A DNA stretch of 64,000 nucleotides. It comes from Thermodesulfobacteriota bacterium (lineage in GTDB: Bacteria > Desulfobacterota_D > UBA1144 > Nemesobacterales > Nemesobacteraceae). Positions within the stretch are counted from its first letter, which is position 1; each line of letters starts with the position of its first letter. A program made the translations under genes and the position numbers. The DNA is taken from the NCBI GenBank assembly GCA_965116725.1, contig OZ220700.1:881315-945314 (forward strand). The letters run 5' to 3'. The notes under the pieces are model-generated. The model made no database searches. It was not told the origin of the DNA and saw nothing but the letters and a program-made list of their open reading frames with translations. Shown in pieces: positions 2,576 through 60,173 of the stretch.

Positions 2576-2623
2576 CTCGGTTCTAAGCGTGAAAAATCAT
2601 TTCCACCTGCAGACTTTTCTCGG

Positions 2624-2872
2624 TTATTGCGGGGCCTGAAAGGGATCCGCTTCTCCTGAGGGAGCTGCGGGAGCTGCAGCGCTCGCCTCCTGAGGCGCCC
2701 CCTGTGCGGACTGAAAAGGATCCGCATCGCTCTGGGGCTCTTGGGGTTCAGGCGGAGCGGGTGGTTCGGCAGCCTGCTGCCCACCTCCTCCTCCTTCGTT
2801 TAACATAAGGACTATCCCTATGATAAGAATTACGATAGCTAACAGCACTAACTCATTGCCTTGTATTGTCAT
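2624..2872 (-). CDS. small single-pass membrane protein with DPFQ repeats (paralogue 2)
   Basis: The 82-aa ORF has the helix LVLLAIVILIIGIVLML, GGGGG, a Pro/Ala/Glu-rich tail and DADPFQSA...EADPFQAPQ. AGGAGG lies about 12 nt upstream of the ATG. Confidence 0.5.
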   Translation of the reverse strand: MTIQGNELVLLAIVILIIGIVLMLNEGGGGGQQAAEPPAPPEPQEPQSDADPFQSAQGAPQEASAAAPAAPSGEADPFQAPQ

Positions 2873-48439: not shown

Positions 48440-50854
48440 TTAGATCGAACGCAATTCGGCCCCTATCGTTTTTTCCAAACTCTTAAGAACATCCTGCTGA
48501 ACCCTGTTAGCATCCTCGTCGGTAAGGGTCCTTTCCCTGTTTCGAAGAATCAAGGAAAGCGCAACACTCTTTTTTCCTTGCTCAAGGGAATCTCCCTTGT
48601 AAACGTCAAACACCCAAGCGTTTTCTATTATACCGGAATCCGCCTTTTTTATAACCGAAAGAATTTCCCGTACCGGAACCGTATCATCGACCACAAGCGC
48701 TATGTCGCGACGAAGAGAGGGGAATTTGGGAAGGGGGGAGAATTTCCTCTCGAAACTCGTATAGACGACCGAGAGAAGTGACAGGTCGAGTTCAAGCACG
48801 TACACGCTTTCGCTTATCTCGAGTTTTTCCAGAAGATGGGGATGAAGCTCCCCTACCATCCCCAGAATGTTTCCGTCAACCAGCACCGCGGAGGATTTTC
48901 CGGGCCAAAGGAATCCATGATCGGGAGAAACGGACTCAAATTCTATCCTTGAATCCACCGAAAGGACCTCCAGGCTCCTTTCAAGCACGCTTTTTATGTC
49001 AAAGAAGTCGAATTTCTCCCCGTCCCATATCTCGGGTGCCCTTTTTCCGGTGGCAATCGCCGCGAATTTCTTCACTTCGTTCGGCAGCTGGTCCATGTCC
49101 TTGGGGTAAAACACCTTGCCGGACTCGAAAAGTCTTACGTCCTGATTCTGCCTTGAGAGGTTAAGTCTCACGTTTTTCACCAAGGAGGGAAGAAGGCTCA
49201 TCCTCATCTCCGAAAGCTCCCGCGATATCGGATTCATAATGCGGATCGACTCCTCAAAGCCGAACGTCCTGAGAAGTTCGGGAGACTCGAAACTGTAGTT
49301 TATAGCCTCAAGAAAGCCGTAGGAGACGAAAATGTCCCTGAGCCTTTTCTCCATTACGGTTATCACGCTGGGTTTTCTGGCTACCATGGGAACCTCCGGC
49401 AGGACGGAGGGAATGTTGTCATAACCCAGAAGACGGGCGACTTCCTCGACTATGTCCACCTCGCGCTCTATATCCACCCTGAAAGTCGGAACCCGAAGCA
49501 AAAGCTCCCCTGCAGAGATGCTCAGAACTTCAAACCCGAGACTCTCGAGAAGTTCCGCTATCTCCTGGGAATCGGTGGATATGCCGACTAGACTGCAGAC
49601 CTTGTCAACCGACATGGATATCTCTCTTGGGCTAACCGGTTCGGGGTACACGTCGATAATCCCCTTGGCAACCGTTCCCCCGGATAAGCGGCTTATAAGC
49701 TCGGCGGCGCGGTCAAGCGCAAACGAAACGTTGTTTATGTCTATGCCTTTTTCAAACCTGCTCGAAGATTCGCTCTTGAGACCGGTTCGCTTGGACGTTT
49801 TCCTTATCCCTACGGGAGAAAAGTAAGCGGCTTCAAGCAGAACATTGCTCGTCGCATCCTCTATTTCGGTGCCGGATCCGCCCATGACTCCGGCAAGCGC
49901 GACGGGATGGTCCCCGCTGCAGATAACCAGATCCTCGGCGAGCAGCTTTCTTTCGACCTCGTCTAGCGTTTCTATCGTTTCCCCGTCACTAGCTTTTCTG
50001 ACGGAGATCTGACCCTTATCAAGCTTGTCGTAATCAAAAGCGTGAAGCGGCTGCCCCTGCTCAAGCAAAACGAAGTTCGTAACGTCAACGACATTGTTAA
50101 CAGAGCGGATTCCGCAGTACTCAAGCCTCTCCTGAAGCCACACGGGAGAAGGACCGATTCTGACTCCTTCAATGAGCCGGCAACAGTATCTGGGGCATGC
50201 CTCTGCGTCCTCAACAACTACGGCGGCCTTTTCCGAAATACTCTCCCCCCGCTCTTTTAAGGAGAAAACCGGTTTCTGAAGGTTCTCACCCAGTATTGCC
50301 GAGACTTCTCTCGCGATCCCGAAAATACTCATGCAGTCAGGACGGTTAGGGGTAATTCCCACCTCGAAGATAACGCCGTCGTAACCGATCTGCTCGTTCA
50401 TGCTGGTTCCAAGCTCGGCCTTGGGTGAAAGAATCATTATCCCGTCTTCGTCGCCCGAGAGGCCCATTTCATCCGCAGAACACAGCATTCCCTCGGAATT
50501 TTCCCCGCGGATCTTGGAGCGTTTTATCTTGAGGCCTTCCGGAAACTTCAAGGTAGGGGGGAGAAGGGTTCCAGCCTTGGCAAAAGCGACCTTGTCCCCT
50601 TTTTTCATGTTGTCCGCACCGCAGACAACCGTGTAGGGAGTTTCTCCGTCCGTAACCTCGCAGACGCTAAGCCTGTCGGCGTTGGGATGCTTCTCGATGC
50701 TGCTTATCTGGGCGACGCAGACATCAGCAAGAGCCTTGCCCTTGTCTTCAAGCGCTTCAAGCTCCAGGCCCGCCATGGTAAGCATTTCTCCCAGTTCTTC
50801 CGGAGAAACGTCGATTTTGAGGTAGTCGGTAAGCCATCCAAGAGGAAAAATCAT
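48440..50854 (-). CDS. pheT: phenylalanine--tRNA ligase beta subunit
   Basis: 804 aa. MIFPLGWLTDYL, a tRNA-binding OB domain (HPNADRLSVCEV), then B3/4, B5 and FDX-ACB domains. Confidence 0.95.
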   Translation of the reverse strand: MIFPLGWLTDYLKIDVSPEELGEMLTMAGLELEALEDKGKALADVCVAQISSIEKHPNADRLSVCEVTDGETPYTVVCGADNMKKGDKVAFAKAGTLLPPTLKFPEGLKIKRSKIRGENSEGMLCSADEMGLSGDEDGIMILSPKAELGTSMNEQIGYDGVIFEVGITPNRPDCMSIFGIAREVSAILGENLQKPVFSLKERGESISEKAAVVVEDAEACPRYCCRLIEGVRIGPSPVWLQERLEYCGIRSVNNVVDVTNFVLLEQGQPLHAFDYDKLDKGQISVRKASDGETIETLDEVERKLLAEDLVICSGDHPVALAGVMGGSGTEIEDATSNVLLEAAYFSPVGIRKTSKRTGLKSESSSRFEKGIDINNVSFALDRAAELISRLSGGTVAKGIIDVYPEPVSPREISMSVDKVCSLVGISTDSQEIAELLESLGFEVLSISAGELLLRVPTFRVDIEREVDIVEEVARLLGYDNIPSVLPEVPMVARKPSVITVMEKRLRDIFVSYGFLEAINYSFESPELLRTFGFEESIRIMNPISRELSEMRMSLLPSLVKNVRLNLSRQNQDVRLFESGKVFYPKDMDQLPNEVKKFAAIATGKRAPEIWDGEKFDFFDIKSVLERSLEVLSVDSRIEFESVSPDHGFLWPGKSSAVLVDGNILGMVGELHPHLLEKLEISESVYVLELDLSLLSVVYTSFERKFSPLPKFPSLRRDIALVVDDTVPVREILSVIKKADSGIIENAWVFDVYKGDSLEQGKKSVALSLILRNRERTLTDEDANRVQQDVLKSLEKTIGAELRSI

Positions 50855-51286
50855 AAATTCACCCGGCGAGTTAGATTACACGGTATAAAAAACTGGTCAA
50901 CAGTTAACCTGCTGAAAACAAAAGATTATTTAAGAAATTAAAAATGACCCCCAAACAATCATGACCAAACCAGGGGGGCCGCGCAACAGGCCCCGCAAAC
51001 AGGCGAACATTTTAACCAACTGAAGAGAAAAAACGCGGTTCCCGAGACGGGCAAAGAAACGCGCCCGCGCGTAAAATTCTCAGTGAACTTCTTAACTGTT
51101 AACAAATTATTAAAATTTCGTTTGGAGTTTCTTAATTCACTGATATGAAACACTTTTTCTTGTCGATAGATTGTGAATGAAATTCCCCGAACTCCGCGGG
51201 CTGTACTCTAACTCCCTTAAATAATTAAATAATTCTCCAGGTGGGCCGATTCCTTTTACTCATTCCGCCAAGTGCCCTGTGAAATG

Positions 51287-51313
51287 TTTGGAACTTATAG
51301 ACCTAGATTGACA
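51287..51313 (+). repeat. island repeat family, copy a (degenerate), directly upstream of the transposase relic
   Basis: tttggaacttatagacctagattgaca compared with the consensus tttgggaattacatacttgggttgaca. Confidence 0.55.
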
Positions 51314-51338
51314 AGTCTTTAAGGATAAGGAGGTAACA

Positions 51339-51450
51339 ATGCCTAAGACCAAAACTTTCCCTGTACGGACTGCTTGAATACTTCAATATGGAAGAGAAGG
51401 CAATGAAGCACATGAAAGTGATACGGTGGAAAGAAACAAGCACAAAAACT
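51339..51450 (+). pseudogene. frameshifted, truncated 5' relic of an IS1595-family transposase gene
   Basis: ATG..MPKTKTFPVRTA stop. The +1 frame reads KLSLYGLLEYFNMEEKAMKHMKVIRWKE, which parallels KLSIYKFMERFDTEEKAMLHIESVRWPRG of the intact transposase at 58264..59190. Confidence 0.6.
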
Positions 51451-51461
51451 TCCTTAAATGG

Positions 51462-51490
51462 TTGTAATTCTCACAGCGATTTGATTTAAT
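51462..51490 (+). promoter_or_regulatory. candidate promoter of the metzincin-like gene
   Basis: TTGTAA-N17-TTTAAT. The 12-mer ggttgtaattct (51460-51471) is identical to 59506-59517, upstream of the 164-aa ORF. Confidence 0.4.
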
Positions 51491-51590
51491 GCCTTGTGGA
51501 GGGAGCAAGGGCTTCAACCATCCTTGGAACCCAGAGCTTAGTAAGCAGCTCTGGGTTTCGGCGCTCTCCGCATCTAACCTAGTGACTTAT

Positions 51591-52454
51591 ATGATGAAAT
51601 TTGCTGTTCTGCTTCTTGCGCTCTTCCTTCTGTCCTGCGTGGGGTCCGAGGGAGAATCGCCTTCGGAGCATACACTGGACGGAGTTCTGCGCACAGACGC
51701 TCTCGGCAACCCGATTGAAGACGGAGTCACCTATTACGGCTGCCCTCGCGGCGGATGGGTCAAGGATCTCAGAGACTGCCCGAAGGCTCCCTACCTTGAG
51801 ACCTGCAGGCCCGAGGAAATAGAGCAAGTGACGGACGAACAGATAGAGGAATTTCTGCTGTGGTTCAGCCGAGACGTCGTGCGATGGGCTTCGGCTCCGA
51901 CGGTGCGGCTCTCCCGCGACCTCCCGGGCCACGTGCGCAGAGCGATCATGGAGGCAATCTCCAGACTTAACACTGTGCTCCCCGACCCTTACGACATGAG
52001 GATCGGACGGGATGCCACAGATCCCGCAGAGCGCGTTCCCCAGGGGGAGATTCACGTCCACTTCGGATACACTCCCCAGTGGACCTGGCCTGACGGCTCG
52101 TTCATAGACCCCGAGCGTACGGGACTGTTCGGCATCGCGGGATACAACTCGGATGAGGACGGTCTCATTCACTCCCGCATATGGATAGGTGCGAACGCGG
52201 AGCAAAGCCCCTGTCCCGGACGTCAGGACGACGAGCTCCTGCGAAAGGTGGCCCTCCACGAACTTCTCCACGCCCTGGGTTTTCCGGGACACGTGCCTTG
52301 GCCCCGATACGATACCATCATGGACTCGCAGATTAGCTGCAATCTCATGGACTCATTTGAAGAGGCGACCCTGCCCATGCCTCTTGACTGTGCGGCGCTT
52401 CGGAAGATCTATTCGCTTGAAATAGGAACTCCGATTGAAGACATTGCCGACTGA
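51591..52454 (+). CDS. lipoprotein with a metzincin-type zinc-protease motif
   Basis: The start MMKFAVLLLALFLLSCVG carries a lipobox. HELLHALGFPGH equals HExxHxxGxxH. The gene is visibly GC-richer than its flanks. Confidence 0.65.
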   Translation: MMKFAVLLLALFLLSCVGSEGESPSEHTLDGVLRTDALGNPIEDGVTYYGCPRGGWVKDLRDCPKAPYLETCRPEEIEQVTDEQIEEFLLWFSRDVVRWASAPTVRLSRDLPGHVRRAIMEAISRLNTVLPDPYDMRIGRDATDPAERVPQGEIHVHFGYTPQWTWPDGSFIDPERTGLFGIAGYNSDEDGLIHSRIWIGANAEQSPCPGRQDDELLRKVALHELLHALGFPGHVPWPRYDTIMDSQISCNLMDSFEEATLPMPLDCAALRKIYSLEIGTPIEDIAD

Positions 52455-52523
52455 AAAACCCGAGCACAATAGGCCTGGCCGAAAAAAAGATTTGCAATAT
52501 TCCTGAACGTTGTTAAATAACCC

Positions 52524-52551
52524 TTGTTAACTTAAGTATATAGTTCCCAAA
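52524..52551 (-). repeat. island repeat family, copy g (inverted, about 5 mismatches)
   Basis: The reverse complement reads tttgggaactatatacttaagttaacaa. Confidence 0.55.
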
Positions 52552-52553
52552 TG

Positions 52554-52580
52554 TTTGGGAATTACATACTTGGGTTGACA
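52554..52580 (+). repeat. island repeat family, copy b (27 nt, identical to copy d in inverse orientation)
   Basis: tttgggaattacatacttgggttgaca. Confidence 0.9.
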
Positions 52581-52777
52581 AGCATGATTTTGAATAAAGA
52601 TTCGGATCGAGAATCTGGGGAGAGCATATTATGGCAAGCTGTTCCTTTCTCCTGTGTTTGCTCAAAACGCTTGGCTACGTCGGCTAAACATCCTAAAAGC
52701 AAATACACTTGGCCTTCTTCGGAGAGCTTAGAAGAGGTAGAGAACAACAGGTCTCTTACTACGAATTCATGGTCCAT
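52562..52777 (-). CDS. hypothetical 71-aa protein
   Basis: A strong RBS (aaaggaggcccttcaATG on the minus strand) and an operator-bearing promoter upstream. The C-terminus runs into repeat b. Confidence 0.45.
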   Translation of the reverse strand: MDHEFVVRDLLFSTSSKLSEEGQVYLLLGCLADVAKRFEQTQEKGTACHNMLSPDSRSESLFKIMLVNPSM

Positions 52778-52846
52778 TGAAGGGCCTCCTTTAATGGGCT
52801 TTCTCAGGGGGTGGGGCTACACCCCCTGGGATTAATTTTTACTTGT

Positions 52847-52886
52847 AATTACGGACAGTTATACTCGATTATGGACAGACAGTCAA
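52847..52886 (-). promoter_or_regulatory. promoter with two operator-like motifs (drives 52562..52777)
   Basis: The minus strand reads TTGACT-gtctgtccataatcgag-TATAAC-tgtccgtaatt. The -35 is at 52881-52886 and the -10 at 52858-52863. Confidence 0.5.
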
Positions 52887-52898
52887 GAACAACAAACA

Positions 52899-52924
52899 TT
52901 TGGGAATTAATACTTGGGTTGACA
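52899..52924 (+). repeat. island repeat family, copy c (one 1-nt deletion)
   Basis: tttgggaattaatacttgggttgaca. Confidence 0.8.
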
Positions 52925-52982
52925 AACCGCTTGTCTTTCTGTCCACTTCCGCAGACACCTAGGTATACTAGTTCCTTAAATT

Positions 52983-53240
52983 ATGGACAAAATAAAGAAT
53001 TTATTGGAGGGGCTTGAAGTGTTTTGGCACCTCGTAACAATGCCGGTCCTATTGGTTGGGATAGGTGCGCGTATACTCAAACCCGATCTTGAGTGGTGGG
53101 GACTTCCTGCTGATATGCTTCTTTCTTGCTTTTGTTTCTTCTGCTTGTTGTGCGGACTTACACCTTATTTAAAAATGGATATCACGCTCAAGAGGAAAGT
53201 TTTGAGGCAAGGCCTATTGAAAGCAGATAAAGAGCTATAG
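52983..53240 (+). CDS. hypothetical small membrane protein (a GTG start at 53019 with GGAGGGG upstream is possible)
   Basis: 85-aa ORF with two hydrophobic segments (VTMPVLLVGIGARIL; LLSCFCFFCLLCGL). Confidence 0.3.
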   Translation: MDKIKNLLEGLEVFWHLVTMPVLLVGIGARILKPDLEWWGLPADMLLSCFCFFCLLCGLTPYLKMDITLKRKVLRQGLLKADKEL

Positions 53241-53438
53241 TAAAACTTGCAGGCTACGCAATTCTAAGTGCCCACATCTGGCGCAAACAATACCTGCAAG
53301 GCGATGCGCCTTATCTTCGTCTTCTACTTTTAGAGAGAGCACCTCTGTAGTAAAGAATTCAGTGGCGTTACATCTCGGGCACGTCTTCCTGTTCTTTTGC
53401 ACCTGATCTAAAACTGCTTGGAGTTCTTCCTCAGTCAT
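53235..53438 (-). CDS. small zinc-ribbon protein
   Basis: 67 aa with CPRC...CARC pairs. The ATG lies 15 nt downstream of the preceding gene's stop. Confidence 0.45.
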   Translation of the reverse strand: MTEEELQAVLDQVQKNRKTCPRCNATEFFTTEVLSLKVEDEDKAHRLAGIVCARCGHLELRSLQVLL

Positions 53439-53452
53439 GGGCAGAAAACTCC

Positions 53453-54094
53453 CTAATCATGCCTTAGGTAACAAATCTCTTCCTCATAATCAACATCTAT
53501 AGGTACTCCTTGAAACAACACCACGCTGGTAGAGGCGTAGTAGGCATCTTGCCCCCTGCTGTCAATAAAGTGTTCGATATTCCGACACTGAACAATTCCG
53601 GGCATTAAATCGAGTCGCGCACATATAGCAACTCCACCCGAGTGAGGAAGCAGCCCAAACCTGCCTCCGTAATAAGGTGGCTCCGTACCAATCTCACATA
53701 TGCTCCAGAATTCGTACACATCTCTGGCGTATTCATAGTCGGTAATCACCCCTATAAATACGCCGTTGGTATAGTAGCGTTCCAAGCTGTCGGCACACTC
53801 TATATAAGGGTTGCCTGTTGCCTCTTGCAATACTCCTAGCACAGGATCAAGAGCTCGAAATGATGTTATTGAGCCAGGAGGAAGGGGCTCGACATGAGTA
53901 AAGAGAGGGTCGTTGCAGTTTATTTCTTGGGTGTCCTCCTGCTGGTTGAAGTCAGCATATAACTCAGGCTGGAATGATTGAGATGATGTAGAAGAATCAG
54001 CAGGGACCGAAACATTTATGTTTGTTGTGTCTCCGCCTCCGCAACCCGTTGCGAGGAAAACTGTCAATATAAGTGGGATTAATAATCTGGCCAT
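53453..54094 (-). CDS. lipoprotein, unknown function
   Basis: The inner start MARLLIPLILTVFLATGCGG (lipobox) has GGAGG upstream. The stop codon is TAG. Confidence 0.6.
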   Translation of the reverse strand: MARLLIPLILTVFLATGCGGGDTTNINVSVPADSSTSSQSFQPELYADFNQQEDTQEINCNDPLFTHVEPLPPGSITSFRALDPVLGVLQEATGNPYIECADSLERYYTNGVFIGVITDYEYARDVYEFWSICEIGTEPPYYGGRFGLLPHSGGVAICARLDLMPGIVQCRNIEHFIDSRGQDAYYASTSVVLFQGVPIDVDYEEEICYLRHD

Positions 54095-54122
54095 ACCTAA
54101 CCTCCGATTTAGTATGGGCAGT

Positions 54123-54151
54123 ATTCTAATGGATTGTGGACAGAACATCAA
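54123..54151 (-). promoter_or_regulatory. promoter with an operator motif in the spacer (drives 53453..54094)
   Basis: The minus strand reads TTGATG-ttctgtccacaatccat-TAGAAT. Confidence 0.5.
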
Positions 54152-54260
54152 GGAGGAAGGTGGGCGTGATCTCTGTGCCGTCATTATTGGACCACATCAC
54201 GAAAGATAAGCTTATGTTCCTATATGCAGACTCGCGCCCACCTGAAACAAAGGATATCAG

Positions 54261-54273
54261 ATTGTGGACAGAA
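54261..54273 (+). promoter_or_regulatory. second identical operator copy (gATTGTGGACAGAAc)
   Basis: The 15-mer gattgtggacagaac occurs at 54132-54146 and again at 54260-54274. Confidence 0.5.
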
Positions 54274-54295
54274 CCGCAACAAAAAACCCCGCTCT

Positions 54296-54323
54296 TTGAG
54301 TTAACAAAGCAACGGGGTATAAT
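54296..54323 (+). promoter_or_regulatory. candidate promoter of tRNA-like gene 1
   Basis: TTGAGT-N16-TATAAT. The -10 ends 10 nt before the first base of the 9-bp acceptor helix. Confidence 0.45.
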
Positions 54324-54333
54324 TTGATTTCAC

Positions 54334-54426
54334 GGAGAGTGTCCGCTAGCAAGTGCTAAAAGCCAGCTTAGACCTGGCTGGGGTGCTTTGACCAAGCACC
54401 GGGGGCAGTACCCACACTCTCCGCCA
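54334..54426 (+). tRNA. non-canonical tRNA-like gene: 9-bp acceptor / 3-bp T stem, long variable arm, anticodon UAG, discriminator G, encoded CCA
   Basis: Folded by hand. GGAGAGTGT (54334-42) pairs with ACACTCTCC (54414-22). D-like hairpin TAGC-AAGT-GCTA. Anticodon arm AGCCAG-CTTAGAC-CTGGCT. Variable arm GGTGCTT-TGACC-AAGCACC. GGG-GGCAGTA-CCC. Then G and CCA. Confidence 0.55.
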
Positions 54427-54499
54427 AACCGGACGTCAAGAGAAGTGTATGCTATACAGATAATTCAGTCAAGAACTTTCTGTCCGTAATCGCGATTAG

Positions 54500-54694
54500 T
54501 CAACTTGTAAGCGGCCGCAGGTATACCCAGTAGACCTTTTCTCCGCAATGGGGGCATACCGGGAGTTTCTCGCCACGTATAAACTTCCTTTCGGTTAGAC
54601 ACCTGCACGATGTCCTGTAAATGCCCCCCGGAAAAGCCCTGCGCCCGGTATAATTGCCCAGACCGAGCTTTCGGGATCTTCTCTTCTTGTTCAT
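54500..54694 (-). CDS. small basic zinc-ribbon protein (weak RBS)
   Basis: 64 aa. SCRC...CPHC. Lys/Arg-rich N-terminus. Confidence 0.35.
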   Translation of the reverse strand: MNKKRRSRKLGLGNYTGRRAFPGGIYRTSCRCLTERKFIRGEKLPVCPHCGEKVYWVYLRPLTS

Positions 54695-54868
54695 TTCTCT
54701 ATTTTAAGGCGGGCGCAAACCTCCTTATCTTGTATTCGGAAGGAGCCAAGACGATGACCAGGTATTGACCCGGCCGGACGTGCGCCCGCACATAAAAAGG
54801 AAAGCGGCATCTTGTCCACCATGAGGAAAGTGGTTTATGTCGCAGACTACCGCTTCCCATTATTCTAA

Positions 54869-56158
54869 TTATGGTGAAGTCACAAAATACCCCACCAGTC
54901 CGTTCTCCCCGTCTGAAGATCCGAAGGTGCCGTTAGCGCTGGTCGGATAGGAGGCATCTTCGAAGAACCTTAATCCATAGAACGCTACTTTTCCTCCGCC
55001 TTTCCACTCCCCGTCAACTATGCTTCCGGCCCCTCCGGCGTGCGTCGCTCCCAGGGGATCCGCGAACTCTGAGATAGGGGATTGGAACTGCACTTCCGTG
55101 GGCAAGCTGACATCTGCCTTGAAGTTATACGCCCGCACGCTGACAGTTCCCTCGGCGAAGTTGATGGTAGTGGTTACGTCAGCGGTGAAGGTTCCCGTCT
55201 TCGGGTCGGAAGACCTGTCAGTGAAGTAATGCCCGCTTGCTGTTCCCGTGTAGGTAACGGTTCCTTTGGGGTGTACCTCGGGTAACCCGTAGGGATATCC
55301 ACCCGCGGCATAGACACCAAAGTCGTAATCCATTGAAGCGGGGTCCTCGGGGATATAGAACCAACTGCCAGCGACAAGATAGTCGATTGCCGGCTGGTAC
55401 TCGTGTGGGGCTACAGTGGTGGCGGACGGCAGTGTCACTTCGGGGAGGCTTGAATCGTCCGGAGTGAACACCACCGCGCCAATTCCTGGGTGATACCCTT
55501 TTGCTTCAGTGTTGCGGTTGAATTCAAGATAGCAGAACGTGGCACACCTGAAGCTTCCCCGTACGCCATCCAGTGCTCCCGCCAGGGAAACATTGATAAA
55601 GAATATCTGCCAGTCGCGCCCCGGGGGGAGCTCAGGGAACTCGTCTATTTCAATTAGTCGGCTGAAAGGAGCATAGTTTACCCACGGCTGCCGTACCGGA
55701 TGGGCAGGAGTCACATTGCTGGTGACGCTGACCCTCCATTTACCGGCTCCGGGAAAAAGCCTCTCCGCTTCAAATGCCCTCCACCCTTCTCCAAACGCGT
55801 GCTCCGTTTCCTGGAAGGTGGTATCCGGAGTTTCCGAACGGATCATAAGACGCCCCCTCCATTGGGTAGGAGCGAAATAATTGGACTCCTGGTCGAACAT
55901 CGAGAGATTGAAGCCAAGCCCTTCTTCATCAAACCATGGCAGTACGATTGAATAACGAGGGCCAGAGACCGTTTGCGATACGTTCTTGTAAGGAGTGATG
56001 TCGGGACCGATAGTGGAGAAGGATGGCTCATGGTCGATTGCCATGTACATCAGGTCGGCCATGCTTATGGTTTTTGAATCATCCTTTGAATCATCCGACG
56101 AACTGCCGCATCCAAGCAGCGCAAGCGCAAGAAACAGGGGAAGCAAGGTTTTAGTCAT
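54869..56158 (-). CDS. surface-lipoprotein-like protein with a TbpB/fHbp-type C-terminal beta-barrel
   Basis: Lipobox LALALLGCGSSS. The C-terminal pattern YTGTASGHYF...GTFTADVTTTINFAEGTVS...GEWKGGGKVAFYG...ANGTFG...GLVGYF is the usual 8-strand barrel of TbpB-like lipoproteins. Confidence 0.55.
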   Translation of the reverse strand: MTKTLLPLFLALALLGCGSSSDDSKDDSKTISMADLMYMAIDHEPSFSTIGPDITPYKNVSQTVSGPRYSIVLPWFDEEGLGFNLSMFDQESNYFAPTQWRGRLMIRSETPDTTFQETEHAFGEGWRAFEAERLFPGAGKWRVSVTSNVTPAHPVRQPWVNYAPFSRLIEIDEFPELPPGRDWQIFFINVSLAGALDGVRGSFRCATFCYLEFNRNTEAKGYHPGIGAVVFTPDDSSLPEVTLPSATTVAPHEYQPAIDYLVAGSWFYIPEDPASMDYDFGVYAAGGYPYGLPEVHPKGTVTYTGTASGHYFTDRSSDPKTGTFTADVTTTINFAEGTVSVRAYNFKADVSLPTEVQFQSPISEFADPLGATHAGGAGSIVDGEWKGGGKVAFYGLRFFEDASYPTSANGTFGSSDGENGLVGYFVTSP

Positions 56159-56186
56159 TATTCTCTCCTTAATCGTGGTAGAAGCG

Positions 56187-56230
56187 ATAATATCACGATT
56201 GTGGACAGAATGTCAAAAGAATGTTATTAT
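56187..56230. promoter_or_regulatory. overlapping divergent promoters sharing one operator motif
   Basis: Leftward: TTGACA (rc of 56211-16), an 18-nt spacer containing ttctgtccacaatc, then TATTAT (rc of 56187-92). Rightward: TGGACA (56202-07)-N17-TATTAT (56225-30). Confidence 0.5.
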
Positions 56231-56237
56231 CACAATC

Positions 56238-56329
56238 GTTGTTTGTCTAACGACCCTGTGCCGGGTCTCCGTGGAATACAAGACCCAACGGGAAATAAAC
56301 GGCACGTCCATTATCGTTAGACAAACAAC
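56238..56329 (+). ncRNA. structured leader/sRNA candidate: 16-bp perfect closing helix with nested helices
   Basis: GTTGTTTGTCTAACGA (56238-53) pairs with TCGTTAGACAAACAAC (56314-29). Inner helices are GTGCCG/CGGCAC and GGTCT/AGACC. Loop CCGT can pair with ACGG (56288-91). Confidence 0.4.
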
Positions 56330-56377
56330 AAGGCCCGGCGCCCTTGGGCGTTCGGACACCATATAAGGAGAAAGACT

Positions 56378-56623
56378 ATGGCTGAAGAGGAAGGAATAGA
56401 ATTTCTAAAAGGAGAGCTAGCTTTAGCGGCTGCGGCCATTAACGTTCTGCTCGACCTTGTTTGCATCTTATCAGAAGGCAAAAGAGTGACTAAAGGAGAC
56501 TTGCGCGAAGACCTAATGATTAGGCTAGGTACCGCTCGACCAGAGGGAATGAAGTCCGAAGAGTATATGAGAGGAATCGGGGCGTTTAAGGCGTTGATAC
56601 TCGACGGACTTTTGGATGAGTAA
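56378..56623 (+). CDS. hypothetical 81-aa protein
   Basis: AAGGAG lies 7 nt upstream of the ATG. The protein looks helical and acidic. No family recognised. Confidence 0.5.
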   Translation: MAEEEGIEFLKGELALAAAAINVLLDLVCILSEGKRVTKGDLREDLMIRLGTARPEGMKSEEYMRGIGAFKALILDGLLDE

Positions 56624-56756
56624 CCTCTGTTCCTTTTTGTTTTTAGCTTTCTTACGCTTTTCAGCTAAAGAATCTGTGACTTCTAGGTTGTCTTTCATGC
56701 TTAATAAGCATACCCTATTGTTTTGCTTTGGTAAAAATAAAAACTTTTAATAAATC

Positions 56757-56808
56757 TTGACATGACGTTTAAATTGTGATGATAATATGAGTGTCCGATT
56801 GCGGACAG
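56757..56808 (+). promoter_or_regulatory. promoter plus downstream operator of the collagen-repeat lipoprotein gene
   Basis: TTGACA (56757-62)-N18-GATAAT, then the dyad TGTCCG-attg-CGGACA (56792-56807). Confidence 0.5.
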
Positions 56809-56859
56809 GTTTTTAAGGTATGGAAAACAAAAAATCTCTTTATAAGGAGGATTTACATT

Positions 56860-57942
56860 ATGAGATTACGTAATCTTTTTATGATCCTGCTGTTGTGCAT
56901 GACGGTGGGAATGTTTGGCGTTTCGTGCGTCGATGACGGCGAGGATGGAGCGCAAGGGCCTCCGGGACCTCCGGGGCCTGCTGGACCTGCGGGTGAAGAT
57001 GGTGATGCTGGTGATGGTGGGATGGCTACTTACGATTTCTTGAAAGCGTGGGGAAGCGAGACAGGTACGATTGGCTGTGACGACCCGATACTGACGGGCG
57101 AGGGGGTTTTCCCTGGAGAAGGGTTAAAACCTATTCTTAATGCCAATGGTGTGCCGACACCAGCGTCGGGCATAGTGGCTAGGTGTAACGACGATGTATT
57201 CACCACACTTGCCGAAAACGCAGCTGCCACGCTTGGTGAAATGACGGGGTTAACACACGCCACTGGGGAGCTTGTCTTTATCAAGTCTGAACAATTAGTA
57301 GGCACCGACGCGATAAAAAGTGAGGTGGAGAACGATAAAACGCCAACCAAAAACGCGACTCGGGTAAATAAAACAACACGGCTTGTTGGGGGTTCCTTCT
57401 TTGCGGAGATGAGTACTACCGGTGGCAATGACGAGTCTGGAGAAAGGGCAATACTTTACAGTAATTGTAGTACGGGAACGGCACCTTCTGACCTCAGAGG
57501 ACATTGGCGTGCTGTAGAGATTACCGAAGTTTCGCAAGAATACTCCGCACCCGGAACTGCTGTTGCTGACGCAGTTACCACAACAACTACCACTAAAGTT
57601 TGTCTAAGGCTTGACTCAGTGCCAGGAACAGTCAAGTGCTTTATCGAGATTGAGGTGGATGCTCCGGCTGATGCAGATGGCGCACAATCCGGAGACTTTA
57701 CAACCGAGCAGATAGCGCTTTATGACGGTACGGCGGCTGAAGGCATGATGATTACGCCTGTTGCTCCGAAGGCTGCTGCTGCAACTGGATTGCTTGCAGT
57801 GCCGGCAGGTACTGACGGTGGGACAGCAAATGCTTCAGCGGCAGCAGTCGCTCTTTTTGGAGCCGATCAAGATTTAGACGCCGATAATGTGAGCAAGCTA
57901 TGTGCTCTCTTTGAAGAGGCGGGCGCCGCAGGAGGCAGTTAA
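56860..57942 (+). CDS. lipoprotein with a short collagen-like (G-X-Y)8 repeat
   Basis: AGGAGG lies 7 nt upstream. MRLRNLFMILLLCMTVGMFGVSC carries a lipobox, followed by GAQGPPGPPGPAGPAGEDGDAGDGG. Confidence 0.65.
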   Translation: MRLRNLFMILLLCMTVGMFGVSCVDDGEDGAQGPPGPPGPAGPAGEDGDAGDGGMATYDFLKAWGSETGTIGCDDPILTGEGVFPGEGLKPILNANGVPTPASGIVARCNDDVFTTLAENAAATLGEMTGLTHATGELVFIKSEQLVGTDAIKSEVENDKTPTKNATRVNKTTRLVGGSFFAEMSTTGGNDESGERAILYSNCSTGTAPSDLRGHWRAVEITEVSQEYSAPGTAVADAVTTTTTTKVCLRLDSVPGTVKCFIEIEVDAPADADGAQSGDFTTEQIALYDGTAAEGMMITPVAPKAAAATGLLAVPAGTDGGTANASAAAVALFGADQDLDADNVSKLCALFEEAGAAGGS

Positions 57943-58052
57943 TAAAGGACAAAACCCAAGGGAGAGTATAATGAAAGCCTCTGGTGAATTGTTTCCGAAC
58001 AAGACGTCCATCATCGTTAACTAGACACCTTCTAAAAGCTTTCCTTTGACAG

Positions 58053-58085
58053 CCCGGGCTTGAGAGATCGAGCCCGGGTTTTTTT
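58053..58085 (+). terminator. intrinsic terminator
   Basis: CCCGGGCT-tgagagatcg-AGCCCGGG followed by TTTTTTT. Confidence 0.75.
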
Positions 58086-58093
58086 GTATCAGA

Positions 58094-58122
58094 TTGACTT
58101 CTTGTCCACAATCAGTAATTAT
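58094..58122 (+). promoter_or_regulatory. operator-bearing promoter facing the 3' end of the transposase gene
   Basis: TTGACT-tcttgtccacaatcag(t)-(T)AATTAT. Downstream there is only a weak 51-codon ORF (58137-) or antisense RNA to the transposase 3' end. Confidence 0.35.
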
Positions 58123-58263
58123 GATTGACAAGAGAAATGTGCAGAAAACCAGAAGAACAAATTCCCGATATGTCCGAGGTAGATTTTGACACTCGGTTAC
58201 GTATTCTCCTAGGGGAACCTCCTGATCAAGAGGGGGCGGACGATAGTGCCGCCCCTTCCGATT

Positions 58264-59190
58264 CTACTGAATCAGATCCCGATAACTAAGCTTCTTCCCT
58301 ACCATCCCGTTCAGCGTAAGGTCTATCATGTCAATCGTATCCTCTCTCCGCATGTTATGGCGGGTCGCGTATTCATCCGCGTACCGCTGAAGGTGCTTAT
58401 GGGACATCTTGTGATAGGTTCCCTTGTATCCACGCTTTATTACCGCCCAGAAAGACTCAACGCCGTTTGTTGAGGATTCCCCCCTGACATACTCGCCTTT
58501 CTTGTGGTCCACGGCCATGTGCTCGAAGCCGAGCATCCCGACAATGGTATAAGCTCCGTGCTCATCCGAGTACACATGGGATCCTCTCTCCACGTTCTCA
58601 ATCAGGGTCCGGGCAATAGTGCCGCTATCAACCTTGTCGACGACAAAAGCCTTCACTCTCCTTGTATCCCGTTCCCGGATACCCACGATTGGCTTCTTGC
58701 CAACCTGACCGCGGCCTTCCCGAAGCTTCTTGTTGCTGTGCTTGTTTTTCTCAAGCCCGCCCACGTAAGTTTCGTCAATCTCGACCGCTCCCCTGAACTT
58801 GGGGCTCTTTACCTTCCACGCTGTCCGAATCCTGTGACACAGGTACCATGCGGTTTTCTGCGTAACGCCCAGGTCGCTTGCCAGCTTGTTGCTCGACGCT
58901 CCTTTAGGGGCAGTTCCCATAAGATAGATAGCGGCCAACCACTTGCGGTAAGACAAGTGCGACCCTTCCATCATGGTTCCAGTGCGGACGCTGAAGTAAC
59001 TGCGACAGCTGGAACACCAATAATTCATCTTAGGGTGATTGGACTCGCAGGTCTCTTCGGATTTGCAACGAGGGCAATTTCTTCCTCGCGGCCAACGGAC
59101 GGACTCTATATGGAGCATTGCCTTTTCTTCGGTATCGAATCGCTCCATGAACTTGTAAATAGAAAGCTTCTTTCTTTTTTCCCTAGCCAT
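58264..59190 (-). CDS. IS1595-family (ISXO2-like) DDE transposase; IS ends not resolved
   Basis: An N-terminal zinc ribbon (CPRCKSEE...CSSC), then EIDETYVGG, YSDEHGAY and TNGVESFW catalytic regions. The stop codon is TAG. Confidence 0.88.
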   Translation of the reverse strand: MAREKRKKLSIYKFMERFDTEEKAMLHIESVRWPRGRNCPRCKSEETCESNHPKMNYWCSSCRSYFSVRTGTMMEGSHLSYRKWLAAIYLMGTAPKGASSNKLASDLGVTQKTAWYLCHRIRTAWKVKSPKFRGAVEIDETYVGGLEKNKHSNKKLREGRGQVGKKPIVGIRERDTRRVKAFVVDKVDSGTIARTLIENVERGSHVYSDEHGAYTIVGMLGFEHMAVDHKKGEYVRGESSTNGVESFWAVIKRGYKGTYHKMSHKHLQRYADEYATRHNMRREDTIDMIDLTLNGMVGKKLSYRDLIQ

Positions 59191-59272
59191 AATTACAACC
59201 TCCCCTGATAATTGACTGCGAGAGGCATATATTGTATGTTGGATAAGGGGTAAGCGGATGATATGGTGTCTC

Positions 59273-59357
59273 GGAGGGCACCAGAATTGGCCTTAAAAAC
59301 TGTCTCTAAAACAGTGGCATGCCTGTCAGCATGGGGGTTCGATTCCCCTGCCCTCCG
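59273..59357 (+). tRNA. non-canonical tRNA-like gene: 8-bp acceptor / 4-bp T stem, long variable arm, anticodon CUA (amber), discriminator G, no encoded CCA, poor D arm
   Basis: Folded by hand. GGAGGGCA (59273-80) pairs with TGCCCTCC (59349-56). Anticodon arm ACTGT-CTCTAAA-ACAGT (59299-59315). Variable arm CATGC-CTGTCA-GCATG. T arm GGGG-TTCGATT-CCCC. The D region allows only CCA-GAAT-TGG. Confidence 0.5.
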
Positions 59358-59372
59358 CAGAACACAGAAAAC

Positions 59373-59394
59373 GACAGGAAGAATATTTCCTGTC
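59373..59394 (-). terminator. hairpin that would act as a terminator for leftward transcription
   Basis: GACAGGAA-gaatat-TTCCTGTC. The minus strand continues gttttctgtgttctg. Confidence 0.3.
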
Positions 59395-59470
59395 CTGAAC
59401 TGCTTTGTCAAATTTCCCTTAGCCAAATTAACAACCTCCCACACTATAAATATAATCATTTCAGGGAGTT

Positions 59471-59500
59471 TGTCAACCCATCTACTTAAATTATTTTGGA
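59471..59500 (-). repeat. island repeat family, copy f (degenerate; only gggttgacaa is well conserved)
   Basis: The reverse complement reads ccaaaataatttaagtagatgggttgaca. Confidence 0.35.
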
Positions 59501-59507
59501 TGCCGGG

Positions 59508-59537
59508 TTGTAATTCTGTCCAGTATCGGTGTAAACT
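59508..59537 (+). promoter_or_regulatory. operator-bearing promoter of the 164-aa ORF
   Basis: TTGTAA-ttctgtccagtatcggtg-TAAACT. Confidence 0.45.
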
Positions 59538-59612
59538 AAAGTTTACTTTCGATCAATGAGGCGGAGGGGCCTCTGTTTGAATGCTCATGGTTTGTACTTA
59601 TAGTAATAAAGT

Positions 59613-60107
59613 ATGGACTTTGTAAATCAGAATTGGCCAATAATTTCTCTCGTTATTCTTGTTGCCGGGGTTGCTTGGAGAGCTAGAGGATGGGTTTCGT
59701 CTGTTGATACAAAAATCGAAAATGTTGAAAAAGGTATAAAAGAGATTTCCGATTTTCTCGGAACAGTTTTTCGTTCCACTATTGTACCTAACAGCCCTAT
59801 TAGTTTAACTGATTTAGGTCTTGAAATTTCAAAAACACTTAATGCATCACAATGGGCTAAATCTGAAGCAATTAAGCTGGTTCGTGAAGAGAACTTAAGA
59901 TCTAAAAAACCATCACATTACATAATCGAAAGACACTGCTTTGATATTATAGAAGGAAGAGTAGAAGCAACACCAATGCAAGAAAGTGTTGAAAAATGTG
60001 CATACAAAAAAGGGCTGAAAAAACAACAAGTCCTAGATGTTTTAGCCGTTGAACTAAGGGACGCTCTCTTTGAACAACTCGGAATGGACAAAGACGCAAA
60101 CTACTGA
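59613..60107 (+). CDS. hypothetical protein with an N-terminal TM helix
   Basis: 164 aa and AT-rich. WPIISLVILVAGVAW forms a membrane anchor. No family recognised. Confidence 0.5.
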   Translation: MDFVNQNWPIISLVILVAGVAWRARGWVSSVDTKIENVEKGIKEISDFLGTVFRSTIVPNSPISLTDLGLEISKTLNASQWAKSEAIKLVREENLRSKKPSHYIIERHCFDIIEGRVEATPMQESVEKCAYKKGLKKQQVLDVLAVELRDALFEQLGMDKDANY

Positions 60108-60117
60108 AACCGACTAA

Positions 60118-60144
60118 TGTCAACCCAAGTATGTAATTCCCAAA
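60118..60144 (-). repeat. island repeat family, copy d (perfect inverted partner of copy b), abutting parS-1
   Basis: The plus strand tgtcaacccaagtatgtaattcccaaa is the reverse complement of 52554-52580. Confidence 0.9.
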
Positions 60145-60160
60145 TGTTTCACGTGAAACA
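60145..60160. other. parS: parS (ParB-binding centromere-like site), perfect consensus
   Basis: TGTTTCACGTGAAACA. Confidence 0.85.
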
Positions 60161-60173
60161 TTCAGTCCCGCTT

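Follow-up and report, generated by a model that had tools for sequence, protein, structure and literature searches.

Here we describe E1, a 93-nucleotide (nt) gene at 54334-54426 on the forward strand of a 64,000-nt stretch of DNA from a Thermodesulfobacteriota bacterium (contig OZ220700.1, positions 881,315 to 945,314; hereafter the window). E1 is very probably a genuine gene of the 9/3 allo-tRNA type, strand-specific and with its own promoter; a transfer RNA (tRNA) of this type has nine base pairs (bp) in the acceptor stem and three in the T stem. The gene is part of a horizontally mobile island. The kind is already known, including 9/3 species with Leu anticodons (Mukai et al. 2017, PMC5389517). 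What is new is an alternative elbow in an allo-tRNA, a near-identical scaffold carrying different anticodons, a co-resident 8/4 gene resembling an amber suppressor, and the complete genomic context of E1: a promoter cassette, an association with IS1595 and a phage-like element, and an island hot spot. We favour the reading that E1 is a Ser-charged tRNA reading CUA/CUG on this island, and give the whole statement a probability of about 0.45.

Allo-tRNAs were first discovered through near-miss matches to the tRNA-Sec model (PMC5389517). They have been found mostly in short metagenomic reads, and in nature may be missense or nonsense suppressors or regulatory RNAs. An earlier reading made from the letters of the window (the sequence-only reading) had called E1 a 9/3 allo-tRNA-like gene with Ser-type features and a Leu (UAG) anticodon, and had cited Mukai et al. 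on this class. The citation is correct—9/3 species with anticodons for CUA/CUG are recorded there (NAR 45:2776, PMC5389517)—and the call itself is supported by a column-for-column alignment with published 9/3 allo-tRNAs, a full-length covariance model match, a strand-specific signal, a promoter kept in sister cassettes, and a tRNA body conserved above its flanks.

Structure of E1

Every element of the hand fold previously proposed for E1 is present (Table 1), and the minimum-energy fold agrees with it. In RNAfold the minimum-energy and centroid structures are both this multi-branched fold, at -43.4 kcal/mol against -32.4 +/- 3.3 kcal/mol for 200 dinucleotide shuffles (z -3.33), none of which equals E1; across the helices, 29 of 31 positions pair. 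RNAfold places the anticodon stem two bases over (CCAGCU/GGCUGG, loop UAGACCU); however, the AGCCAG/CUGGCU register is settled by the homologue E1b, described below, which folds in that register only. The variable arm runs straight into the T stem with zero spacer, as in published 9/3 allo-tRNAs, and the D arm has a tetraloop and a 6+4+6 spacing identical to that of the 9/3 references, from which it differs in pairing at only four of its six stem positions, the inner ones.

The claim that a canonical 7/5 fold is impossible also holds: the 5' strand CCGGG faces CCCAC, and no GUGGG is available. Viewed as a canonical elongator tRNA, E1 has no 7/5 stems, a D loop devoid of GG, and a T loop that is not UUCRANY; viewed as a tRNA-Sec, it has a 12-bp 9/3 branch and the anticodon UAG. 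The Ser identity set, on the other hand, is present—G73, G1:C72, G2:C71, A3:U70 and a long variable arm—and the geometry of the variable-arm junction is that of the allo-tRNA UTu1.

Standard finders pass over the gene. ARAGORN calls zero tRNA genes across the whole window, and Rfam at gathering thresholds gives no match to E1. A permissive Rfam scan of 54000-54700 (E<=10) returns nothing to tRNA (RF00005) or tRNA-Sec (RF01852); its weak rdlD and anti-hemB matches are the minus-strand terminator hairpin just upstream of E1. With 54100-54700 as query, BLAST found no match in phages, plasmids or E. coli genomes.

Comparison with published allo-tRNAs and other tRNAs

As references we used nine natural 9/3 allo-tRNA chassis, with sequences taken from the supplement of Mukai 2020 (PMC7590224). 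These have a 9-bp acceptor stem starting GGAG or GGGA and followed by a 1-2-nt linker; a 5-6-bp D stem closed by the tetraloop YGGK (UGGU, CGGU or UGGG); an anticodon arm that follows the D stem directly, without a linker, and has the loop CU-NNN-AA; a long variable arm that in most of them abuts the T stem directly; a T arm RGG-UUCRAYU-CCY, with GGG/CCC in seven and AGG/CCU in two; and G73 plus CCA (PMC7590224). E1 is like these chassis and UTu1/S012 in its 9-bp acceptor, GGG/CCC T stem and 2-nt linker; in the tetraloop that closes its D stem, its anticodon stem abutting the D stem and its CU-NNN-A loop; in a long variable arm with two unpaired bases on the 5' side and no 3' spacer; and in G73, a GGAG... 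acceptor start, a non-Ser anticodon, and nearby transposase genes.

From the five chassis that align without 5' gaps we built a covariance model, R1, with the cloverleaf set by hand and the window sequence excluded. R1 matches 54334-54426(+) over model positions 1-90 of 90, with 43.6 bits and an E-value of 1.4e-7 (both strands, 128 kb in all). When filters are switched off, E1 scores 16.1 bits on the minus strand, and the rest of the window, except for the second gene described below, reaches at most 12 bits. In a MAFFT alignment E1 lines up column for column with published 9/3 allo-tRNAs. When E1 and a diverged relative, L018e, are aligned with five published 9/3 allo-tRNAs, standard pairs make up 95.7% of the cells of the acceptor, D, anticodon and T helices, double changes occur in 18 of 23 pairs, and none of 500 shuffles does as well; slid controls give 48-57% pairing. 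For E1 aligned with the five published sequences, the columns of the 9-bp acceptor and 3-bp T stems pair in 100% of cells. We assign E1 the 9/3 geometry because of this alignment, together with the failure of the canonical tRNA model.

Canonical bacterial or phage tRNA-Ser genes (for example L003 6187-6278 and L021 3745-3832) have ends identical to those of E1, namely GGAGAGUGU... and ...CCCACACUCUCC-G-CCA, and share its class II arm and G73. In contrast, they have GUGGG/CCCAC (7/5), a Ser anticodon, and a large D loop with GG on a stem of 3 bp; E1 has the anticodon UAG, and its positions 8-9 form pairs with 64-65. The identical ends point to descent of E1 from tRNA-Ser or to convergence on tRNA-Ser identity. 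Bacterial tRNA-Sec (selC, RF01852) resembles E1 in its long acceptor stem, tetraloop-closed D stem, extended anticodon stem and long variable arm, and differs in having a 13-bp 8/5 branch and a UCA anticodon; known allo-tRNAs were found through the Rfam model of this tRNA, which E1 escapes even at E<=10.

In pattern searches, the acceptor stem of E1 matched only a canonical phage tRNA-Ser and one chance sequence in viral contigs, where the exact D arm plus anticodon loop had zero matches. Allo-type spacing combined with the T arm of E1 gave zero matches in viral contigs and three chance, non-tRNA matches in JGI metagenomes, and the promoter plus acceptor pattern in GTDB genomes retrieved only an unrelated canonical tRNA-Ser pair from a Gottesmanbacteria metagenome-assembled genome.

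Sister genes and the conserved cassette

The sequence-only reading had pointed to homologous loci and to compensatory changes in the 9-bp stem as a check on E1. Related copies do exist on other contigs. One of these, E1b, was traced through the transposase gene to L029 11765-11857, on the 1.63-Mb contig ERZ24894577 ctg522303l, with an identical copy in L030. It scores 46.3 bits with R1 and has the E1 scaffold, including AAGU and GGCAGUA; however, its anticodon loop is CU-GCG-AA, and its anticodon GCG corresponds to Arg CGC/CGU. GCG is among the predominant allo-tRNA anticodons (Mukai 2017, PMC5389517). E1 and E1b differ at 8 of 93 nt (91% identity), and five of these differences lie within 9 nt at the top of the anticodon hairpin—three bases of the loop, and the closing pair G:C replaced by U:A. 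The remaining body differs at 3 of 84 nt (96% identity), whereas the flanks are 78.7% identical upstream and 60.7% downstream. By this comparison the body of E1 is under purifying selection, and its anticodon is unlike that of its closest relative.

The second relative, L018e (L018 2080-2178; R1 35.8 bits), was traced through the 429-amino-acid (aa) neighbour protein of E1, and lies 140 nt downstream of an IS1595 transposase gene 48% identical to that of the window. Its acceptor start, acceptor end and variable-arm start are the same as in E1; its anticodon loop is CU-CUG-AA, its D loop contains GG, and its T loop is UUCGAU plus a 4-nt insertion. The deposited IS1595 transposase call at L018 996-2426 (476 aa) continues through L018e, while homology to the window transposase ends near 1940; this overlap resembles the allo-tRNA pseudogene overlapping a transposon-related open reading frame (ORF) that was reported by Mukai et al. 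2017 (PMC5389517).

Across E1, E1b and L018e the anticodon stem closes with G:C, U:A or A:U and begins with A:U or G:C; the variable stem shifts through G:U, and acceptor pair 7 goes from U:A to U:G. Judged from these alignments, the three genes are a small cassette family whose body is kept far above its flanks and whose anticodons are UAG, GCG and CUG.

The conserved unit includes a promoter. The TTGAGT-N16-TATAAT promoter that had been noted 10 nt upstream of E1 is present at 54296-54323, and TATAAT, the 16-nt spacer and a TTGNNN -35 box are retained in E1b (TTGCCG) and L018e (TTGCCT). The common order is an A-run, a G+C hairpin, the 16-nt spacer, an invariant TATAAT, 10-13 nt, and G1 of the tRNA, with the -35 box of each cassette lying in the loop of the hairpin. 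The base of this hairpin (CCCCG...CGGGG) is constant and its interior differs among the three. Read on the minus strand, 54287-54317 is a hairpin followed by UUUUUUGUU, the shape of an intrinsic terminator; because the U-run follows on that strand, the hairpin would terminate antisense transcripts after the tRNA gene. In the window, such transcripts would stem from the convergent genes for the 429-aa protein and a 64-aa protein.

A further shared element lies at the upstream edge of the cassette. The 14-15-mer GATTGTGGACAGAA(C/T) stands upstream of both E1 and E1b (L029 11919-11932), and also occurs at L002 1286-1299, in a phage-like flank, and at L018 941-954, upstream of the transposase gene. 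In the window it is also repeated inside a promoter-like site for the 56378/56791 genes, and GATTGTGGACAGAA may be a shared operator or promoter element. In L029 the position and orientation of the cassette differ relative to the homologous neighbour gene; hence the cassette, not the neighbourhood, is the conserved unit.

Two small ORFs flank E1 and matched no known family. The 64-aa ORF (54500-54694, minus strand) is zinc-ribbon-like (CxC...CPxC), is 68% conserved at the aa level in L018, and had no homologue in a word search. The 55-aa ORF (54160-54327, plus strand) has a strong AAGGAGG ribosome-binding site and ends inside the E1 promoter. The 429-aa neighbour had no relative in JGI metagenomes.

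A probable alternative elbow and its phage counterparts

E1 and E1b combine the D loop AAGU with the T loop GGCAGUA, and of the canonical elbow bases retain only G19 and C56. We scanned IMG/VR for this T arm with the pattern GGGGGCAGTACCC-N9-GCCA, and obtained ten matches, nine of which are tRNA-shaped and amount to eight distinct sequences (L006 and L011 are identical). All nine have the exact T arm of E1, GGGGGCAGUACCC, and pair at 7/7 acceptor and 5/5 T-stem positions in the places left free by the pattern. Most matches sit in phage tRNA arrays, and ARAGORN calls none of the nine; several of these arrays have no called tRNA-Asp, while the uncalled odd-elbow gene has the anticodon GUC. Seven of the odd-elbow phage tRNAs show 95% pairing with double changes in 15 of 20 pairs, and none of 500 shuffles is as good.

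Further odd-elbow tRNAs were found by script in the same loci—Ile (UAU), Gln (CUG) twice, Gly (GCC) and His (GUG), with T loops GGCAGUA, GGCGGUA or GGCAGAG—which, with Asp, Gln (UUG) and Trp, gives at least 13 distinct sequences. Their helices are perfect and their T loops follow GGCRGNN; nearly all have A-G-Y in the D loop in place of G18-G19 (AAUAGYA, ACAAGU..., AAAAGC...). A tRNA-His in L014 with the T loop GGCGGAA and the D loop AACAGCA is called by both ARAGORN and Rfam, and the tRNA-Asp of the same contig has no match to the Rfam tRNA model. A partial match to a Vibrio phage tRNA-Asp proved to be a canonical tRNA. L005 also contains, at 2583-2670 (minus strand), an irregular gene resembling a phage tRNA, to which the allo-tRNA model gives 55.5 bits; a UGGU tetraloop closes its 6-bp D stem, and it has the anticodon loop CU-UUU-AA, a long variable arm, the discriminator C, and only about 7+3 acceptor-branch pairs.

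Comparison of these sequences indicates that a D loop with A18-G19 paired with a T loop G54-G55-C56-R57-G58 is a recurrent, selected alternative, and E1 has exactly that pair. G19:C56 would be kept in this elbow, with A18/G55 and G54/G58 presumably replacing G18/U55 and U54/A58. The phage tRNAs are like E1 in the A-G-Y D loop and the G54-G55-C56-R57-G58 T loop, and in being mostly missed by ARAGORN and the Rfam tRNA model; they differ in being 7/5 and mostly class I, with D loops of 7-10 nt and positions in arrays, whereas E1 is a 9/3 class II gene with a D tetraloop on a bacterial island. The sequence-only reading had taken the odd loops of E1 as a sign of a non-translational role. The loops are indeed non-canonical; however, they are weaker evidence against translation than was supposed, because the same combination recurs in covarying phage tRNAs inside tRNA arrays. 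We read them as an alternative elbow rather than as decay.

The alternative elbow in phage tRNAs may be undescribed: no account of phage tRNAs with such a T loop or with a G54/G55 elbow came up in the literature searched, which is not proof of novelty, and D or T loops are not discussed in Mukai 2017 (PMC5389517). The L014 array region had no match in deposited phage genomes.

The mobile island

The genes of the window mark a Gram-negative chromosome: SecA, SMC, a YidC with a periplasmic domain, a SurA-like protein, PheT and MnmE. Within it, 52564-60134, the segment that carries E1, is 99.7% identical to L002 2025-9607, a metagenome contig whose flanks differ from those of the window and encode the phage recombination proteins ERF and YqaJ. 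Such identity in two contexts suggests that the segment moved recently between a chromosome and a phage-like element. The codon usage of the segment is foreign: CTA makes up 10.3% of its Leu codons against 3.5% in host genes, and TTA 16% against 2.3%. In host genes as a whole, CUA accounts for 39 of 11,406 codons (0.34%), whereas CUG is common, at 20% of Leu codons.

The interval between pheT and mnmE (window 50854-60174; L023-L028, L031-L033) is a variable hot spot in the lineage. The relatives compared, which include TARA marine samples and one NCBI assembly, have a syntenic IS1595-family transposase gene as a constant of this interval (61-63% aa identity), and cargo that includes Fic, an EcoRI-like restriction-modification pair and IS110. 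The seven loci of relatives with the syntenic transposase gene have no allo-tRNA. In L029 a related island sits between a CMD-domain gene and mnmE. Searches of the island ORFs against Pfam, PHROGs, NCBIfam and PADLOC gave no toxin-antitoxin or defence match and nothing informative, and no clear insertion sequence (IS) inverted repeats were found around the transposase gene.

E2, a second allo-tRNA-like gene

The same segment holds E2, an allo-tRNA-like gene of the 8/4 type that lies 83 nt from the start codon of the IS1595 transposase gene. E2 combines an 8-bp acceptor stem, GGAGGGCA/UGCCCUCC, with a 4-bp T stem, GGGG/CCCC; it has the anticodon loop CU-CUA-AA, with the amber-suppressor anticodon CUA, the canonical T loop UUCGAUU, and G73, and its CCA is not encoded. 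Pairing in its D arm is poor, and energy minimisation does not return a clean cloverleaf. Part of its R1 score of 46.4 bits comes from the CTA engineered into the reference chassis. E2 is missed by ARAGORN and by Rfam at the gathering score; against Rfam tRNA-Sec (RF01852) it reaches 40.6 bits (E 6.6e-7), below the gathering score of 47.

Imperfect direct repeats of about 27 nt, TTTCCCTAGCCATAATTACAACCTCCC (59176-59205) and TTTCCCTTAGCCAAATTAACAACCTCCC (59411-59440), bracket E2 and about 200 bp, and the first of them overlaps the transposase start codon. The repeats suggest that E2 was inserted or duplicated together with the 5' region of the transposase gene. TAG is an ordinary stop in the host, ending 8 of 50 long ORFs, the transposase gene included; recoding of TAG was rejected on this count. 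The TAG of the transposase gene lies at 58264-58266, and its readthrough, for example by an amber suppressor like E2, would add 80 residues; readthrough of the TAG of a lipoprotein gene at 53453 would add only 5.

Table 1. Features of the E1 locus, in window positions, and positions of odd-elbow phage tRNAs on other contigs.
Feature	Position	Strand	Sequence or evidence
7.6-kb segment	52564-60134		E1, E2, transposase gene, two lipoprotein-like ORFans, collagen-repeat protein
15-mer, upstream cassette edge	54260-54274	+	GATTGTGGACAGAAC; repeated at 54132-54146 and 56197-56210 (self-BLAST)
G+C-rich hairpin	54287-54317		CCCCG...CGGGG enclosing -35 box and spacer; A6 before it
Sigma-70-type promoter	54296-54301, 54318-54323	+	TTGAGT, 16 nt, TATAAT; promoter scan, 10/12 matches
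E1, 9/3 allo-tRNA-type gene, 93 nt	54334-54426	+	sequence, minimum-energy fold, model R1
E1 acceptor stem	54334-54342 x 54414-54422	+	GGAGAGUGU x ACACUCUCC; 9/9 Watson-Crick pairs
E1 linker	54343-54344	+	CC
E1 D arm	54345-54360	+	4 Watson-Crick pairs, 2 outer mismatches; tetraloop AAGU at 54351-54354
E1 D hairpin core	54347-54358	+	UAGC-AAGU-GCUA
E1 anticodon arm	54361-54379	+	AGCCAG (54361-54366), loop CUUAGAC (54367-54373), CUGGCU (54374-54379)
E1 anticodon	54369-54371	+	UAG; loop C-U-UAG-A-C with U33, A37
E1 unpaired bases before variable arm	54380-54381	+	GG
E1 variable arm	54382-54400	+	GGUGCUU-UGACC-AAGCACC; 7-bp stem, 5-nt loop
E1 T arm	54401-54413	+	GGG-GGCAGUA-CCC; 3/3 pairs, loop 54404-54410
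E1 3' end	54423, 54424-54426	+	G73, encoded CCA
Downstream cassette part	54427-54495	+	...AGAAGT.TAT...AGTCAAGA...TCCG; three-way alignment, partly kept in E1b and L018e
IS1595-family transposase gene	58264-59190	-	Pfam DDE_Tnp_IS1595 3.8e-38, Zn_ribbon_IS1595
E2, 8/4 allo-tRNA-like gene	59273-59360	+	R1 46.4 bits, E 3e-8
Odd-elbow phage tRNAs (Asp, Gln, Trp, Ile, Gly, His)	L005 2840-2916	-	
	L006 9363-9438	+	
	L007 4333-4408	+	
	L007 4843-4916		
Odd-elbow phage tRNAs, further loci	L008, L010, L011, L012, L013		several in L011, two in L013
	L014 447-522	+	

Proposed function and rival explanations

In the reading that we favour, transcription would start a few nt upstream of G1, and the transcript would be processed to a length of about 93 nt with the encoded CCA at its 3' end. 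Seryl-tRNA synthetase (SerRS) would then charge E1 with serine, ignoring the anticodon and reading G73, G1:C72, G2:C71, A3:U70 and the long variable arm. So charged, E1 would place Ser rather than Leu at CUA codons and, through wobble, at CUG, and would act as a natural missense suppressor. Ser charging is inferred from these identity elements, from the UTu1-like variable arm, and from the behaviour of published 9/3 allo-tRNAs: UTu1, an efficient SerRS substrate, matches native tRNA-Ser in activity according to the supplement to PMC7590224, and in E. coli both Ser insertion and toxicity have been shown for 9/3 and 8/4 allo-tRNAs bearing Leu anticodons (PMC5389517). Free expression of E1 should do harm, as CUG is common in the host, and restraint would therefore be expected. 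E1 is antisense to its neighbouring units and bracketed by hairpins that would terminate antisense transcripts, and its expression is probably restrained; that the antisense arrangement provides the mechanism is speculation. That E1 is both Ser-charged and active in decoding has, in our estimate, somewhat less than an even chance.

Several points weigh against this reading. The outer D-stem positions of E1 are the mismatches C.A and G.A, and the same is true of E1b. The loops also differ from those of the published 9/3 allo-tRNAs, which have a YGGK D tetraloop and a UUCRAYU T loop where E1 has AAGU and GGCAGUA, and the functional allo-tRNA UTu1, whose structure on the ribosome has been solved, contains both G18:U55 and G19:C56 (PMC9561287), of which E1 retains only G19 and C56. 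The alternative elbow is seen only in 7/5 phage tRNAs, by comparative evidence. Covariation within the E1 family comes from three sequences and is suggestive rather than statistically strong, and L018e has a bulged A8, an 11-nt T loop, and no minimum-energy cloverleaf. R1 discriminates poorly: canonical class II tRNAs (tRNA-Ser genes) score 25-39 bits, and the R1 score by itself therefore identifies E1 only as a Ser-like class II tRNA. A Ser-inserting tRNA that reads a codon as common as CUG should be toxic. Finally, many natural allo-tRNAs (the UAU group) are inactive in E. coli, and non-translational roles have been proposed for them (PMC5389517).

The last point leads to the main rival, which we hold to be unlikely, if far from negligible: E1 would be a stable, expressed, tRNA-shaped RNA that does not decode—a decoy or substrate for a tRNA-targeting enzyme, a regulator, or the toxic or antitoxic partner of an antisense pair—with the variable anticodon loop as its specificity determinant. 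The clustering of the E1/E1b changes in that loop would fit, as would D and T loops unlike those of every published functional 9/3 chassis. The setting is also suggestive of such a role, since the cassette is antisense to its neighbours and bracketed by terminator-like hairpins on the opposite strand, is associated with IS1595 transposase genes and a phage-like contig, and recalls the inactive allo-tRNAs reported near transposons and toxin-antitoxin systems, for which regulatory roles were proposed (PMC5389517). However, features needed only for translation are intact in E1 (the 12-bp branch, U33, purine 37, the 7-nt loop, G73 and the encoded CCA), the phage tRNAs with the same elbow occupy isoacceptor slots that would otherwise be empty in their arrays, and the segment has no recognised toxin-antitoxin or defence protein.

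E1 might instead be a decaying allo-tRNA or tRNA-Ser pseudogene with no present function. ARAGORN and Rfam miss it, its loops are odd, and relatives with the same pheT-mnmE locus do without an allo-tRNA; L018e and E2 have defects, namely the bulge and 11-nt T loop of the former and the unpaired D arm of the latter, and at least some members of the E1 family appear to be degenerating, as L018e, with its bulge, enlarged T loop and failed cloverleaf, may be. For E1 itself a dead relic is improbable because of the contrast between body and flanks: the body differs from that of E1b at 3 of 84 positions, while the flanks diverge by 21-39%. Moreover, pairing extends to 29 of 31 helix positions, a strong promoter has been conserved, both sides of the closing pair in the anticodon stem have changed, and E1 and E1b share the same odd loops, which obey the rule of the covarying phage tRNAs.

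A tRNA(UAG) that accepts Leu and supplies the rare CUA for island genes, as many phage tRNAs do for phage codon usage, is a further rival. The anticodon fits CUA, which takes 10.3% of Leu codons in the 7.6-kb segment against 3.5% in host genes, and bacterial tRNA-Leu is also class II with a long variable arm. Bacterial leucyl-tRNA synthetase (E. coli identity), however, depends on A73 and on canonical D-loop/T-loop tertiary elements, whereas E1 has G73 and a tetraloop D arm, and its acceptor (GGAGAG...) is Ser-type, with the same sequence as in canonical tRNA-Ser genes. In E1b this body is joined to an Arg anticodon, and one body cannot suit the amino acid of the anticodon in both. G73 and the body shared with E1b make a Leu-charged supply tRNA highly improbable.

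That the structure is a minus-strand 3' untranslated region (UTR) or terminator element of the convergent 429-aa/64-aa genes, or a chance fold, is hardly credible: the reverse complement folds nearly as stably (-42.7 kcal/mol) and a minus-strand terminator follows it, but R1 gives 43.5 bits on the plus strand against 16.1 on the minus, the CCA end, G73, U33/A37 and the promoter are all on the plus strand, and the cassette is not a fixed 3' UTR because its orientation relative to the homologous neighbour differs in L029.

Significance

Where earlier allo-tRNAs come mostly from short reads, E1 can be seen with its promoter, cassette, sister anticodons and island in a Gram-negative chromosome. 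The locus offers a complete setting: a 9/3 gene with a conserved promoter, a near-identical sister with another anticodon, a third, diverged copy, an 8/4 neighbour resembling an amber suppressor, IS1595 transposase genes, and a phage-like contig with the near-identical segment. It makes several questions testable—whether these RNAs are charged, whether CUA/CUG, CGC/CGU, CAG or UAG are rewritten as Ser, and how a dangerous gene is controlled.

A broader, quite unlikely, possibility is that the island carries a set of promoter-equipped "serine chassis" cassettes under active anticodon diversification (UAG, GCG and CUG, plus the 8/4 amber suppressor) that serve mobile elements or phages; because SerRS ignores the anticodon, one conserved scaffold could be retargeted to any codon. 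If this were true, phages and mobile elements might impose conditional, codon-specific Ser mistranslation or stop readthrough on their host; alternatively, such cassettes might keep ribosomes moving after an anticodon nuclease destroys the cognate host tRNA. The G54-G55/A18 elbow would then be a second functional elbow missed by standard finders; it could not receive m5U54 or pseudouridine-55, and might escape elbow-directed host factors.

The odd elbow is relevant to tRNA structure, to modification enzymes such as TrmA and TruB, and to chassis for genetic-code expansion. If odd-elbow tRNAs are functional, phage tRNA repertoires have been under-counted, and the "universal" G18-U55/U54-A58 elbow would have a natural alternative.

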